Shown here in pieces: positions 17,748-60,563 of a stretch of DNA of 64,000 bases. The notes under the pieces were generated by a model. That model searched no databases, was not told the origin of the DNA, and saw only the letters and a program-made list of their open reading frames with translations. The translations under genes were made by a program, and so were the position numbers. This DNA comes from a virus: positions 32,001 through 96,000 of IMG/VR virus record IMGVR_UViG_3300037184_000121, one strand, 5' to 3'. Position 1 is the stretch's first letter. Every line of letters starts with the position of its first letter.

Positions 17748-18362
17748 ATGCGTGTAAGGTATAATTTAGTCAGGAAAAAATTTGGTAGGCTTTTAGTGAC
17801 GAGTTTCCACCATAAGGATGAAAAATACAGAAGTAATTTCTGGAATTGTCAATGTGAATGTGGTAATATATTAGTACTTTCTGCATCAACTCTTCAAAGA
17901 AAGAAAAGACCTACAATATCATGTGGATGCTATAGATATGATAGGGTGTCGGGTCAGCCAGCTCCAAATAGATTACTTAAGGGTCGAGCAAATTTTAATT
18001 CCTTATTTCAGTCCTATATAAAAGCTGCTAAACAGCGAGAAATAATTTTTCTTCTAACACAAGAGGAATTTCGACAATTGACTAGTCAGAATTGTCATTA
18101 TTGTAATAGTGAGCCACTGCAGAACCATAGTAAAAGGGAAACCTACGGTTCTTATTTATATAATGGTATAGATCGTTTAGATTCTGATAAATCTTATATC
18201 TTAGATAATTGCGTTTCTTGCTGCAAGGTATGTAATTATGCCAAACGAATTATGACAGTTGAAGAGTTTAAATTTTGGATTACACGAGTATATAATAATT
18301 TTGTAAACCGAAGATTGGAGGATCATCCCCTCTCCTCAGCTCCAATTTCTTATGAGCAATGA
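17748..18362 (+). CDS. HNH homing endonuclease
   Basis: FGRL...WNCQCECG; CHYC...GIDRLDS...Y...NCVSCC..CN. Confidence 0.85.
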   Translation: MRVRYNLVRKKFGRLLVTSFHHKDEKYRSNFWNCQCECGNILVLSASTLQRKKRPTISCGCYRYDRVSGQPAPNRLLKGRANFNSLFQSYIKAAKQREIIFLLTQEEFRQLTSQNCHYCNSEPLQNHSKRETYGSYLYNGIDRLDSDKSYILDNCVSCCKVCNYAKRIMTVEEFKFWITRVYNNFVNRRLEDHPLSSAPISYEQ

Positions 18363-18588
18363 ATGTCCTTTACCGTGTAAGATTTGCTTTCACCCAGGAG
18401 AGCAGCATTTTGTATTTGAAGATACTGTTACCGAGTGGTTATTTAATGAGGATGTCGGTCATGAGGTCGAAGTAAATTCACCTTATCCTCGTCCTGTCTG
18501 TAATGAATGTTCAAGGGATTGTGTTTTTGAAGAGATGACTAATTTGGAATTTGTGGAATGGAAATATGATAATCATCAATGTAAGTAA
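18352..18588 (+). CDS. Cys/His microprotein, NLxYLE family
   Basis: CKICFH....H...CNEC...C; TNLEFVEWKY. Confidence 0.7.
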   Translation: MSNECPLPCKICFHPGEQHFVFEDTVTEWLFNEDVGHEVEVNSPYPRPVCNECSRDCVFEEMTNLEFVEWKYDNHQCK

Positions 18589-20017
18589 TGTGAAGAGCCA
18601 GCTTGTGGGTGAACTTGATCCCAGAGTGATCTCAGCCCTACGTGCTAAACTATCTGCAGAGATGGTTGGAGCCTTTTTTGCTCGTCGAGCCAATCCCTAT
18701 GCAGGAGTCAGATACTTTTTCACTCCAAAGACTCAGATGTTTCCTACAGGCATGATCCATTACGTGCGTGATATTCTTGATAAATATGGAGTTGCTTGGG
18801 AGATCGTTGATTTACGTCCTATTGCACAGCCTGGGACTGAAATGCCTTTGCATGGTGTAATCCTACGTGATTATCAGCAGGAAGCGGTAGATCTAGCTGT
18901 CCAGAAGCAACGAGGTATCATAAGAGCTGGTACGGGGGCAGGTAAGAGTGCTGTTCTATCAGGTATCATTGGTCGGCTGAATATGAAGACTCTCATCCTG
19001 ATCCATAAGCAAGACATCTTCTATCAGTTGATCAGAACCTTTGAGAAAAATCTTCAGATACCTATTGGAAAGATCGGTGACGGTGAATGCGAATTTCAGA
19101 ATGTGACGGTAGCTATGGTTCAGACAGTTGCTCATGTCTTCAATCCAAAGGTTAAGGTCCTGGCAAAGGATAATAAGATTCTGAAGGAGAAGGCAGACGT
19201 TATTAGGCAGTTTCTTTCAGGTGTCGAGTGTGTTCTGGTAGATGAAGCCCATCATATTGCTGCAGATACCTTTTGGGATGTAATGCAGAATATTCCTAAA
19301 GCTACCTATCGTATCGGGGTGACAGCGACTGCATTTAGGGAAGATAATATGGATCTGATGCTTGAGGGAGCCTTGGCGAAGAAATTTGTGGACATCTCTT
19401 CCTCTGATTTGATTGATCGTAAATTTTTAGTCCCTCCGTCTATCTATCTGTATCCCATAGATCATCCAAGGCGTAAAAAAGATGATCCCTATGCTGTTGT
19501 CTATGGTGAAGAGATCGTTAACAACATAGAACGTAATATGCTGATCTGCAATCTCGCTCTGAAGGCTAAACATGCAGGGAAAGCTGTGCTGATAGCGGTG
19601 ACACAGATTGAGCATGGAGAAACTTTAGAAAAGCTGTTGCAATCTGTAGATAAATCTGCTATATTTGTTAATGGTCAGTCAAAATCTGAAACCCGTAAGC
19701 AGATTCTGCAAGAGCTTGGTCAGGGTACAGTGAGAATTGTTGTGGCTACAAATATCTACTCAGAAGGAGTGGATATGCCAGCTCTGTCAGTCTTAATAAA
19801 CGCTGCAGGAGCTGCCTCTGGCATTCATTCCTTGCAGTTGCTTGGTCGAGTGCTTAGAACAGCTCCAGGTAAGACGAAAGCCTGGGTTGTGGATTTGCAA
19901 GATGATGGGAAGTTTTTAAACAATCATTCAAAGGAACGGGTCAACATTTATACGACGGAACCTCGTTATAAACTGATTCCTGTGAAGGATATTTCGGAGG
20001 TGAATTTTAATGACTAA
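18566..20017 (+). CDS. SF2 DNA helicase (UvsW/Rad25-like)
   Basis: LRDYQ, GTGAGKS, DEAH, TAT, EGVD.P, QLLGRVLR. Confidence 0.92.
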   Translation: MIIINVSNVKSQLVGELDPRVISALRAKLSAEMVGAFFARRANPYAGVRYFFTPKTQMFPTGMIHYVRDILDKYGVAWEIVDLRPIAQPGTEMPLHGVILRDYQQEAVDLAVQKQRGIIRAGTGAGKSAVLSGIIGRLNMKTLILIHKQDIFYQLIRTFEKNLQIPIGKIGDGECEFQNVTVAMVQTVAHVFNPKVKVLAKDNKILKEKADVIRQFLSGVECVLVDEAHHIAADTFWDVMQNIPKATYRIGVTATAFREDNMDLMLEGALAKKFVDISSSDLIDRKFLVPPSIYLYPIDHPRRKKDDPYAVVYGEEIVNNIERNMLICNLALKAKHAGKAVLIAVTQIEHGETLEKLLQSVDKSAIFVNGQSKSETRKQILQELGQGTVRIVVATNIYSEGVDMPALSVLINAAGAASGIHSLQLLGRVLRTAPGKTKAWVVDLQDDGKFLNNHSKERVNIYTTEPRYKLIPVKDISEVNFND

Positions 20018-20654
20018 GATTGATTGCATCAGTGACTTGCATATGTACTTTGGGCCTAAGCTCGAAGGTGGGGATATTCTCATTATGTCGGGGGATATTT
20101 CATTTGTCGGCAATGCTATAGACTTTGCTGAGTTCGATTTTTGGCTTGGCAAGATCAAGCACCAGTATAAAGCTATTATTGTGACTCCAGGAAATCATGA
20201 TCTGGGCAGTCAGCGTAATCCTTCCTTGTTTAAATCATTGATTACGAATGCTACCTATTTGGTGAATGAACCTGCTACCATCTTGGGTCTGAAGTTCTGG
20301 GTAAGTCCGATGACACCTACCTTTATGAATTGGGCATGGATGGCAGACCGTGGTGCATCGATTAAGAGATATTGGGACATGATCCCTGAAGGAACGGATG
20401 TAATTGTGACACATGGACCACCATTTGGTATTTTGGATGCTTGCCCTGACATGGATGATTCTACAAAGCTGGTAAACGTCGGATGTGAGGAACTTTTGAA
20501 AGCGGTGCAGCGAATTAAGCCTCGCTTGCACATTTTTGGACATATTCATGAGGGTCATGGTCAAGTCACGATTGATGGAACTACTTTTATCAATGCTTCC
20601 ATTATGAATGGTCAGTATCAGCCAGTGAATAGTCCGATTACAATAAATATTTAA
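20010..20654 (+). CDS. Metallophosphoesterase
   Basis: SDLH, GD, PGNHD, THGPP, FGHIHE. Confidence 0.9.
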   Translation: MTKIDCISDLHMYFGPKLEGGDILIMSGDISFVGNAIDFAEFDFWLGKIKHQYKAIIVTPGNHDLGSQRNPSLFKSLITNATYLVNEPATILGLKFWVSPMTPTFMNWAWMADRGASIKRYWDMIPEGTDVIVTHGPPFGILDACPDMDDSTKLVNVGCEELLKAVQRIKPRLHIFGHIHEGHGQVTIDGTTFINASIMNGQYQPVNSPITINI

Positions 20655-20663
20655 AATTAGCTA

Positions 20664-20692
20664 TTGACAGAAAGTTATTTACCTGATATAAT
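20664..20692 (+). promoter_or_regulatory. Perfect-consensus sigma70 promoter
   Basis: TTGACA-N17-TATAAT with extended TG; predicted +1 near G20699. Confidence 0.9.
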
Positions 20693-59375: not shown

Positions 59376-59377
59376 TC

Positions 59378-59617
59378 ATGCGTAAAGGAACAAGTCATTC
59401 AGAAGAGACTAAAGCTAAGATTGCAGCGGCTAAGGTTGGTAAGACATTCACACCAGAACACTCAGCAAAGATTGCTGATGCTCTTAAGGGTCGCAAGAAA
59501 ACACCAGCTCATAAGTTGGCTATCAGTGAAGGTATCAAAGCTTCTAAAGCTGCAAAGGCTGCTGCACTTGTTGCTGCTACACCAGTAGTTGAAGCTCCAG
59601 AAGTATTGGGTCAATAA
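59378..59617 (+). CDS. NUMOD3-repeat small protein
   Basis: HSEETKAKIA, EHSAKIADALKGRK, AHKLAIS. Confidence 0.7.
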   Translation: MRKGTSHSEETKAKIAAAKVGKTFTPEHSAKIADALKGRKKTPAHKLAISEGIKASKAAKAAALVAATPVVEAPEVLGQ

Positions 59618-60069
59618 TGGACTTGTCACTCTGCGAATTCATTGCTGCCATTAAGAAAGATCCTACAGCTAAAATAGAGAATCTTTCCATAAGGGAATTC
59701 TATGCTCTGAAGGCCCATATATTGGTGTGCCAGATTTGTAGTGAGACAGTAGATGAGATAGTGGCAAAGGCTGATGAGATGCCTCATGTAACAGATGGCT
59801 GGGATATTACAAGGTATAATTAGCTATGTCTAATAATTCAAGAGATACCTATATTCAGATGTTCGATGCTTTGCTGTCCCAGGAGCTATGCTATAGTTCT
59901 TCTTCAGCAACAGAGGCGAATATCCGTAATGCCATGAAGAGGATACTTGGAAAGGCTATTAGGAGCAATGTTATTAAGTTGTATTCCAATCTTGTGCTAG
60001 ATGAGAATTTAAACGTTCATTTCACAATCGTTGATGCTGATAATACTCCATTTGACTTGGTGCTTTACT

Positions 60070-60312
60070 ATGGTAAGTAATCCTGATGAATTTGATGAGG
60101 AGCAGCTGAAGAGATTTGAACGTGCTATGTCTCCTTGTAGAACCTGTAGACATATTCGTATGGCTCATTCATCTCTTTCTATAAATAAAGGAAAGTGTTT
60201 AGATTCACGATTAACAAATAAAGAAGTGCATGAGCCTTGTGCTTGTCGGCTATTCATTCCTGCAGAGAATTTAGAGTATTTAGAATGGGTTGCTGAGAAT
60301 AAGGGAAAATGA
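60070..60312 (+). CDS. Cys/His microprotein, NLxYLE family
   Basis: CRTCRH....H...C...CACRLFIPAENLEYLEW. Confidence 0.7.
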   Translation: MVSNPDEFDEEQLKRFERAMSPCRTCRHIRMAHSSLSINKGKCLDSRLTNKEVHEPCACRLFIPAENLEYLEWVAENKGK

Positions 60313-60563
60313 ATATGTATAAAAAACTAGATTGTACATGTGGTCATGAATATATGCAGCATGAATACAATAAAGGGTATAGCCTTGATTCTTGCTGGTG
60401 TGCTTGCATCCATTATGATCCAGCAGGGCATAATCCAGAGCTGGAGAATGTCCTGTGTCCTCGTTGTAGATTGGTTCGATTGGAACGAGTAGATAGGCAT
60501 TATATATGCATTGCTTGCCAGTATGTGATGCTGGAATCTCAGGTCCTGGAGCTAGTCGGATGA
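60309..60563 (+). CDS. CxCGH microprotein fused to a zinc ribbon
   Basis: CTCGH....H...CWCAC; CPRC...CIAC. Confidence 0.6.
   Translation: MNMYKKLDCTCGHEYMQHEYNKGYSLDSCWCACIHYDPAGHNPELENVLCPRCRLVRLERVDRHYICIACQYVMLESQVLELVG

Follow-up and report, generated by a model that had tools for sequence, protein, structure and literature searches.

We describe a phage gene family whose small proteins pair divergent, predicted zinc-binding heads with a shared C-terminal tag. The DNA analyzed, a stretch of 64,000 nucleotides (hereafter the window), is part of a 107.6-kb fragment whose source is a virulent, myovirus-like phage with a distantly SPO1-like polymerase (27–30% identity). The best explanation for its sequence features, to which we assign a probability of roughly 45%, is that they reflect a genuine gene family of long standing and great expansion, consisting of microproteins predicted to bind zinc, whose common helix would serve in docking and which would together act as an early effector or adaptor set.

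The hallmark of these proteins is the motif NLx[YF][LV]E. A six-frame scan recovered all 16 copies that a sequence-only reading of the window had listed, each on the plus strand and within an open frame, with none on the minus strand. As that reading held, the placement is near C-terminal: 15 motifs end 4–11 residues ahead of the stop codon, and the exception, at 59205, lies 50 residues ahead of it. The whole contig holds 21 matches, again on the plus strand in every case. Composition as the cause of this frequency was excluded by shuffling, given that 0.075 matches are expected per residue-shuffled proteome and that the degenerate DNA pattern occurs 0.58 ± 0.74 times per dinucleotide shuffle, with 0 of 100 shuffles reaching 16. 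Synonymous codon variation in the tag was also confirmed (AAT/AAC; TTA/TTG/CTA/CTC/CTT; TAT/TAC; TTA/TTG/CTG/GTG; GAA/GAG), and these sequence comparisons support selection on the tag at the peptide level. The tag does not fit two known types of terminal signal. An ssrA-like ClpXP degron occupies the extreme C terminus with a small nonpolar end, whereas the tag is followed by 3–26 (median 9) variable, mostly charged residues. A T4-type capsid targeting sequence is a short shared peptide that the prohead protease cleaves from the N terminus, whereas the element is C-terminal in 21 of 21 contig cases.

We derived a profile (A2) from 109 sequences of the family and ran it against all contig ORFs. 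Those of the window sorted into 13 full members carrying both tag and Cys/His scaffold, seven scaffold-only ORFs (E 3e-9 to 1.5e-3), and two tag-only ORFs, in agreement with the 13 and approximately seven claimed earlier for the first two groups. All lie on the plus strand. The first full member (18352..18588), a CxxCxH variant with the tag TNLEFVEW, overlaps the start of a helicase gene and has a syntenic orthologue in a complete 192-kb relative, G005. A five-gene array is opened by a tag-only ORF of 60 aa (27494..27676; tag DNLKYLE, no Cys/His scaffold) and continues with a CxxC...H variant (27669..27884), a further full member (27877..28104), one with a GTG start (28097..28291), and one in which the profile finds two zinc-module domains with the tag on the second only (28494..28835). 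A three-gene array (39672..39926, 39901..40104, and 40085..40288) is missing from the syntenic site of G005, as are two members farther downstream, at 42719..42880 (CxxC...H variant) and 42864..43109. The neighboring 42430..42741, which has a long insert and the tag ENLEFLEWKYDE, and 60031..60312, with the tag ENLEYLEW, belong to widely conserved orthologous groups. A minimal full member of 52 aa (45906..46064), for which an AlphaFold2 model was obtained, lies just upstream of the DNA polymerase gene.

In the scaffold-only ORFs the chain stops just past CxCxx[FY]. They include 22202..22390 (E 3e-9), which retains a degenerate RYVE remnant in place of a canonical tag; 40754..40927; 41844..41981 (45 aa); 48583..48738, whose previously given start at 48610 is an internal ATG; 57360..57554, with a syntenic G005 orthologue at 58% identity; 57545..57670 (41 aa); and 60309..60563, where a second Cys-rich part follows the module. 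The earlier observation that the tag also sits on three unrelated bodies was confirmed, with profile matches for 27494 and for 23112..23609, a 165-aa acidic protein without the family zinc module and with the tag NNLEYLEKK. The third, a 117-aa ORF (59022..59375, formerly placed at 59040) with an internal TNLEYLEG, is not significant by profile, although its G005 orthologue retains the motif and stops 17 aa beyond it. Altogether, the 107.6-kb fragment carries approximately 25 family members; family or tagged genes make up about one gene in seven of the contig and 23 of the approximately 91 genes (about one quarter) between 18352 and 60563.

Family members are 41–113 aa long. The head follows the consensus (F)PCxCGHxxxxH, then 22–58 variable residues with one Cys, then CxCxx[FY], with CxxC...H as a variant, and in most members the tail reads [FY]x(P)DNLx[YF]LE plus approximately nine residues. 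Mean column identity across the family is just 19%, with C8, C10, H12, C33, N40, and E45 fully invariant and H17, C26, C31, L41, and L44 nearly so. Paralogues share 30–41% identity at most, but each orthologous group is conserved from end to end across phages. Thus, the original picture of a constant helix joined to a hypervariable loop holds for the constant helix on divergent heads and fails for hypervariability: the whole-length conservation of orthologous groups instead indicates an old set of fixed specificities. A reading with a constant helix and variable zinc heads is supported.

Several observations support the conclusion that the tag is a separable C-terminal, predicted amphipathic helix. 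The zinc module occurs without it seven times in the window and also inside a 1442-aa ORF of another genome (G007). Conversely, in the family of the acidic protein at 23112, the N, L, Y, L, and E of the tag are invariant or at least 90% conserved among 16 orthologues whose identity falls as low as 49% and whose flanks are variable. A profile–profile alignment of this family with the zinc family, at a probability of 94% and E 9e-8, is limited to the last 28 columns. In G005, 11 more ORFs outside the family profile carry the tag near the C terminus (81–173 aa, most Cys-poor or Cys-free). The tag is predicted by AlphaFold2 to be helical with or without an accompanying zinc module, at residues 40–49 of the 52-aa member, where its pLDDT is moderate (~73), and at residues 149–162 of the 23112 protein, which has a net charge of −16 and is predicted to fold independently. 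A conserved aromatic at −4, L1, Y3, L4, and Y8 form a hydrophobic stripe on the predicted helix. Because the same helix is found on unrelated small proteins, it looks like a common plug for a partner.

The family is expanded in related phages as well. Counting copies in related IMG/VR records, as had been suggested, gave 17, 41, 56, 46, 18, 23, and 21 profile matches; the record with 56 members is G003, and two fragments of only ~25 kb hold 21 and 23. An ORF scan of G005 gave 51 members, all on a single strand. In metagenomes we found 1019 family clusters at 50% identity (E≤1e-3), and among the best 150 metagenome matches the tag is present in 140 of the 147 newly returned. Presence and absence also vary, as shown by the arrays of the present phage that are missing from syntenic sites of G005. 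The family changes faster than its neighbors: its orthologues are 40–59% identical, compared with 80–86% for the helicase, polymerase, and SMC-like genes next to them. The carriers in IMG/VR all fall within a single phage clade (polymerases 60–80% identical). A search of 50,697 GenBank phages did not find the family, nor did a strict DNA pattern applied to 185,579 prokaryote genomes, and it appears to be confined to uncultured virulent phages.

The genomic setting suggests early expression. The window holds 13 TTGACA-N17-TAnACT promoter-like sites, all on the plus strand, compared with 0.04 expected. For example, consensus matches lie upstream of the 27494–28835 array (26343..26371, plus strand) and inside the tail of its last gene (28825–28853, plus strand). 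In G005, almost all such sites fall at 4–38 kb and 141–192 kb, with one at 120.8 kb; most family members lie at 10–53 kb and 145–190 kb, with five at 67–88 kb and none at 90–140 kb, the region syntenic with the tail and baseplate genes of the present phage. Judging from these consensus sites, the family genes are probably in early transcription units read by the host RNA polymerase. The genes are also tightly spaced. Counted from the N codon, the start of the following ORF lies at nucleotide +25 in 50 of 156 tags and at +28 in another 16, such that the codons for Y(+8) and E/D(+9), TAT GAx, hold the ATG of the next gene in about one third of cases. The cassettes are therefore probably translationally coupled, and conservation of the tail at Y+8 and E/D+9 is partly confounded by the overlapping start codon.

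It might be reasonable to propose that the tail is mainly a feature of gene organization, namely a junction dual-coded with the ribosome-binding region and start of the next gene, perhaps also a recombination joint, with little function as a peptide. The fixed offsets described above and the gain and loss of arrays between relatives fit this idea. However, the invariant N-L-x-Y-L-E core, with its synonymously varying codons, precedes the overlapping start; a start at the fixed offset is missing for two thirds of tags; and both singleton genes and proteins lacking a zinc module retain the tag. We regard this explanation as very improbable. We also give little credence to the proposal that the proteins are zinc-ribbon-like nucleic-acid binders, either transcription factors or DNA-coating proteins, whose helix mediates dimerization or DNA contact. 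Several core members do lie directly upstream of replication genes (helicase, polymerase, and SbcC/SMC-like), pI exceeds 8 in 38% of representatives, and this is the role suggested for the zinc-ribbon expansion of Bacillus phage G (Iyer et al. 2021, Viruses 13:63, PMC7824862). Yet head net charge spans −15 to +11 and pI is below 6 in 28% of representatives, which is not expected of a uniform DNA-binding family; moreover, profile A2 finds nothing in phage G, and the tag also occurs on acidic proteins that lack the module, such as that at 23112.

Somewhat harder to dismiss, if still unlikely, is the idea that the helix caps the zinc module structurally, packing on the Cys/His knuckles in cis, or in trans where the two are separate, to give homo- or hetero-oligomers within the family. 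The single hydrophobic stripe, the moderate rather than low pLDDT of the helix, and the occurrence of scaffold-only together with tag-only proteins in every genome examined are all consistent with such a cap. In addition, a tag subtype (W at +6 and one additional residue ahead of DNL) varies together with the CxxC spacing in the N-terminal knuckle, and this subtype and the invariant N and E would equally fit an intramolecular helix–knuckle contact, although the covariation may reflect mere shared subfamily ancestry. Against the cap, the existence of seven ORFs with scaffold but no tag, among them 57360 and 60309 with conserved orthologues, suggests that the module is stable without the helix, and the tagged proteins outside the zinc family are longer, the 23112 protein being predicted to fold on its own. 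Another possibility, which we consider distinctly improbable, is that the tag serves in handling, as a recognition signal by which an unfoldase, protease, or chaperone would clear or mature the early proteins at a defined time. One tag is common to about a quarter of the genes between 18352 and 60563, whatever the body, and the phage itself encodes two candidate handlers: a classical AAA ATPase (36258–37658), found in all five relatives searched, and a MoxR-like AAA_5 plus DUF2201 VWA/metallopeptidase pair (53601–56046), conserved in G005. A host AAA+ protease would be a further candidate. However, the tag is not at the extreme C terminus as ssrA-type degrons are, and, since all carriers are closely related, nothing can be learned from their sharing of the AAA genes.

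We favor a docking role for the helix. Each zinc head would be a fixed, individually conserved binding module with its own host or defense target, and the shared helix would dock the zinc proteins, along with other tagged proteins, onto one common phage or host partner. As candidate hubs, the earlier reading named a phage AAA+/VWA machine, a host protease, and RNA polymerase, with a packaging or processing signal as its alternative. Grafting has carried this helix to small proteins that lack the zinc module, and the tagged set as a whole may constitute an effector or adaptor set for early infection. In a bolder version, possible but on balance doubtful, the helix is a phage-wide protein address through which approximately 20–50 early proteins per genome, with zinc heads or other small bodies, would plug into a single receptor on a phage or host machine by way of 10–14 helical residues; as a sub-variant, tag-only and scaffold-only proteins might pair in trans to form combinatorial complexes. 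Because the carriers all belong to one clade, co-occurrence cannot yet single out the receptor. If such an address exists, it would constitute a swappable effector or adaptor library, the first tag-and-hub system described in bacteriophages; its analogue in large eukaryotic viruses would be the F-box/PRANC families. A short invariant helix on many unrelated small proteins also offers an experimental handle, as a bait peptide for the addressed machine, and the individually conserved zinc heads would then supply a catalogue of targets.

Several known systems share features with this arrangement. SspB is an adaptor with a ClpX-binding tail, and the ankyrin proteins of poxviruses, which carry a PRANC/F-box-like motif at the C terminus, form large multigene families. 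Both resemble the present proteins in combining variable heads with one constant short C-terminal element, but this likeness is in manner of working only: there is no sequence similarity, and the tag is by analogy a candidate docking element. In SPO1, strong host-type promoters precede a host-takeover module of small early genes, and the tightly packed small genes described here likewise lie in zones rich in strong sigma-70-type promoter-like sites. However, the SPO1 takeover genes are not known to form one paralogous family or to carry a common tag, in contrast to the tagged paralogues reported here. Those paralogues whose conserved tail encodes the start of the next gene also show a compact gene layout.

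Phage G offers a close parallel, with a ~35-copy zinc-ribbon expansion suggested to encode transcription factors or DNA-binding proteins (Iyer et al. 2021). In both cases a single large phage genome carries small zinc-binding paralogues by the tens (here ~25 in 107.6 kb, 51 in G005, and 56 in G003). In the portions of that report consulted (PMC7824862), a shared C-terminal tag or its grafting onto other bodies is not mentioned for the phage G zinc ribbons. A search of the complete phage G genome (NC_023719; 497,513 bp) with profile A2 gave nothing at E≤0.1, compared with 3–46 matches per relative record, at least 18 in four of five, as a positive control. The present family would be a second, independent case of large phages expanding zinc mini-proteins.

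The earlier suggestion that the system is undescribed held in searches of curated libraries, which gave no match to a characterized domain and none of which names the family, and literature searches returned no paper on it. Against Pfam-A, ten window members gave nothing better than E 0.06, all far under gathering scores, and the best result for the 109 members was FAM221 in three (E 1.8e-4), with a listed score for a window member of 12.7 bits against a cutoff of 25. NCBIfam gave only scattered chance-level matches, and the same 109 sequences gave weak, partial matches to two PHROGs of unknown function (phrog_17060 in four and phrog_11944 in two). The family profile had no matches among PDB sequences at E≤10. 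For the 52-aa model, which is so small that it gives little search power, Foldseek returned no PDB matches and a wide VIA-align search reached a best Z of 2.1. Its best structural neighbors in BFVD are actinophage proteins, such as A0A160DGS4 of Gordonia phage Kvothe, that are likewise small and without an assigned function. These matches span ~35 columns at 32–34% identity (probability 0.97–0.98, rmsd 1.8–3.5), with E-values of just 0.16–0.32, and the columns aligned in the model are probably those of the zinc module.

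The tagged small proteins encoded in the window belong to a family that is real, coding, very large, and phage-specific. The peptide motif NLx[YF][LV]E had been noted from the sequence alone in 16 open reading frames (ORFs), and a six-frame scan recovered all 16 sites, every one on the plus strand. In 15 of these ORFs the tag lies near the C-terminus, 4 to 11 residues from the stop codon; the match at 59205 has its stop codon 50 residues downstream. A residue-shuffled set of plus-strand ORFs yields 0.075 matches by chance, and the corresponding degenerate DNA pattern occurs 0.58 ± 0.74 times in dinucleotide-preserving shuffles, compared to 16 observed in each case, which rules out a chance or compositional origin. 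Furthermore, the codons for the N, L, Y/F, L, and E positions vary synonymously, as had been claimed. The constraint on the tag therefore acts at the peptide level, and a DNA repeat is ruled out. The full 107,602-bp virus contig, of which the window constitutes bases 32001 to 96000, contains 21 matches (21/21 on the plus strand), and essentially all of its genes share one strand.

Thirteen ORFs with a Cys/His scaffold align over the pattern C-x(1,2)-C-x-H-x4-H, a variable stretch with one Cys, and then CxCxx[FY]x(P)DNLx[YF]LE, and a variant of this zinc module carries CxxC...H in place of C...CxC. A profile built from a 109-sequence alignment was run against every ORF of the contig. It recovered all 13 proposed full members, which carry both module and tag, and all seven ORFs proposed to have only the scaffold, which end directly after CxCxx[FY]. 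Of the three ORFs proposed to carry only the tag (named here by window start coordinate), the tag region was matched in 23112 and 27494 but not significantly in 59022, whose orthologue in the related phage genome G005 retains TNLEYLEG. Although mean column identity in the 109-sequence alignment is just 19%, C8, C10, H12, C33, N40, and E45 are invariant, and H17, C26, C31, L41, and L44 are nearly so; seven metal-ligand positions are conserved, so that each module may hold one or two Zn ions. The residues after the motif number 3 to 26 (median 9), with [QK][KL]Y[ED] as a frequent form. When 1.84 billion representative proteins were searched with a profile, 1019 clusters were returned at E ≤ 1e-3. 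The tag is present in 140 of the 147 newly returned matches among the top 150, and among these tag carriers all those of 90 amino acids or fewer have CxCxH, with the full CxCxHx4H in 138.

The C-terminal helix is a separable module that is conserved at the peptide level and common to other small proteins. One example is the 165-amino-acid acidic protein 23112 (23112..23609, plus strand), which carries the tag without the zinc module. Across its 16 orthologues, down to 49% identity, conservation of the N, L, Y, L, and E residues is complete or no lower than 90% while the flanks vary, and only the last 28 columns align with the zinc family in a profile-profile comparison (probability 94%, E 9e-8). 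An AlphaFold2 model of this protein places a terminal helix at residues 149–162. Eleven more tag ORFs of 81 to 173 amino acids, not matched by the family profile, are present in G005; most have few or no Cys residues, and one has an N-terminal hydrophobic segment. Conversely, the zinc module occurs without the tag in seven ORFs of the window and in 11 of the 51 members of G005. It is also embedded once (CKCGHxxxxH...CxC), again without the tag, in a 1442-amino-acid ORF near the terminase gene of another relative (G007, L029:2656-6981, minus strand) that has no match in Pfam. Two tag flavors, NL[KR]YLE[QK]xY and NLE[FY]LEW, coexist in each genome, and the latter mostly accompanies CxxC spacing in the first knuckle. 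The tag bears what we take to be a resemblance to β-clamp-binding motifs (QL[SD]LF-like), but this reading was rejected because the phage polymerase belongs to family A and no clamp was identified.

The family is undescribed within the libraries and papers searched. Neither the window members nor the 109 family members score meaningfully in Pfam, PHROGs, or NCBIfam, and the family profile has zero matches among PDB sequences. For a 52-amino-acid member (45906-46064), the AlphaFold2 model has a mean pLDDT of 78, and it shows no regular structure other than a helix spanning residues 40–49, which corresponds to the tag. Fold searches of the PDB with this model gave no neighbor, its BFVD neighbors are weak and all uncharacterised actinophage proteins, and in the ESM Atlas the protein falls among unnamed viral clusters. 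Fold searches with the 23112 model likewise gave no meaningful match, the top hit being a designed protein (Z 5.6). Searches with two members by tblastn gave no real match among 50,697 GenBank phage records, and a strict back-translated pattern matched nine IMG/VR contigs and none of 185,579 prokaryote genomes; related loci were sought with individual proteins and with degenerate DNA patterns. A search for extended fusions of the zinc module had no match at E ≤ 1e-3, a negative of limited weight.

A full-text literature search with motif strings and related descriptions returned only Iyer et al. 2021 as relevant. The closest published parallel, described there (PMC7824862), is a zinc-ribbon expansion of ~35 copies in Bacillus phage G, to which the family profile shows no homology. 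Families of zinc mini-proteins expanded in large phages are already known as a kind, and the graftable common helix is the added, unusual feature.

Related IMG/VR records carry 17 to 56 profile matches each, and two fragments of ~25 kb carry 23 and 21. The five records checked form one clade, with polymerases 60–80% and AAA proteins 59–83% identical. The 192-kb genome of G005 is complete, bears terminal repeats, and encodes about 300 proteins; it is syntenic with the contig, core genes being 60–90% identical. Because the contig matches only the 96–192 kb and 0–13 kb portions of G005, it is probably incomplete, its 107.6 kb representing about half of a genome. A block of ~80 kb absent from the contig holds most of the G005 members.

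Eight family or tag genes (18352, 23112, 42430, 45906, 57360, 59022, 60031, and 60309) have syntenic G005 orthologues that keep the ligands and the tag where present. These are 37–65% identical overall, compared to 80–86% for neighboring helicase, polymerase, and SMC-like genes. Genes are also gained and lost between relatives, in agreement with a suggested variability in presence and absence: the arrays at 27494-28835, 39672-40288, and 42719-43109 are missing at the syntenic G005 sites. Within the contig, paralogues are at most 30–41% identical, and so there are no recent duplicates among them. The sequence-only reading had proposed a constant helix joined to hypervariable loops. The constant, separable helix and the selection on its peptide are upheld, but the hypervariable loops are not, since each orthologous group is conserved from end to end in many metagenomic phages. 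Judging from these comparisons, the family appears to comprise old, mutually distinct proteins, each maintained in its own right, together with a variable accessory set.

Members sit in promoter-rich, non-structural regions. The window contains 13 promoter-like TTGACA-N17-TA(T/G)ACT sites between 14124 and 61871, all on the plus strand (0.04 expected), and four of them share the extended form TTGACAAGATAAC. G005 has 24 TTGACA-N17-TAnACT sites, also all on the plus strand and almost confined to 4–38 kb and 141–192 kb, with a lone outlier at 120.8 kb. Its members lie mostly at 10–53 kb and 145–190 kb, with five at 67–88 kb, and none occur at 90–140 kb, which is syntenic with the tail and baseplate genes of the contig. 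From consensus matches only, this distribution suggests that the host RNA polymerase would transcribe these genes in the early or middle phase.

We speculate that the zinc heads are diversified binding modules, each with its own target, and that the shared helix would plug all of them into one common partner. We give this docking reading a probability of roughly 0.45. It is unlikely, but still conceivable, that the helix instead serves as a structural cap, in cis or in trans, and we put less trust in a signal for handling or turnover. Lower again we would rank a role like that of a transcription factor, given that the net charge of members runs from −15 to +11, which makes a uniform nucleic-acid-binding role unlikely.

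The arrangement of the genes bears mention here as well. Member genes overlap head to tail: for 156 tags from the contig, G005, and the array loci, the start of the next ORF (counted if at least 40 codons long) falls at nucleotide +25, numbered from the N codon, in 50 cases and at +28 in 16 more. The +25 start is an ATG within TAT-GAx, which encodes Y+8/[ED]+9, and the tail is therefore partly dual-coded. That the tail is purely an organisational junction nevertheless seems very improbable to us, and docking to a shared partner remains our preferred, if tentative, reading.

Several other genes of these phages were noticed. No tRNA genes that might point to the host were found. A BT1-family (folate/biopterin-type) MFS transporter is encoded at 24573-25745 (PF03092, E 9e-41); it is 79% identical in G005 and has no close relative among the 185,579 prokaryote genomes. 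In the virion region, an ice-binding-like domain (PF11999, E 1e-38 and 1e-33, respectively) is present in both of two adjacent large proteins (4611-6950 and 6966-9170), which lie next to Baseplate_J and tail-collar proteins. The family A DNA polymerase (45988-48582) carries an N-terminal uracil-DNA-glycosylase-superfamily domain as well as a 3′-5′ exonuclease domain, and its closest cultured relatives, SPO1-like Bacillus phages, are just 27–30% identical. At 53601-56046, a DUF2201 metallopeptidase/VWA-like protein is followed by a MoxR-like AAA_5 ATPase, a pair conserved in G005. A classical AAA ATPase (PF00004, 36258-37658) was found in all five relatives searched. In the related record G002 (G002:C1:36225-38645, minus strand), its orthologue is split into matches to query residues 7–248 and 246–462. 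Because these halves lie ~1 kb apart inside a single 826-amino-acid open frame, an intein-like or other in-frame insertion is suggested. Finally, the window encodes a bacterial-type RecA at 33466-34470 (PF00154, E 7e-85).
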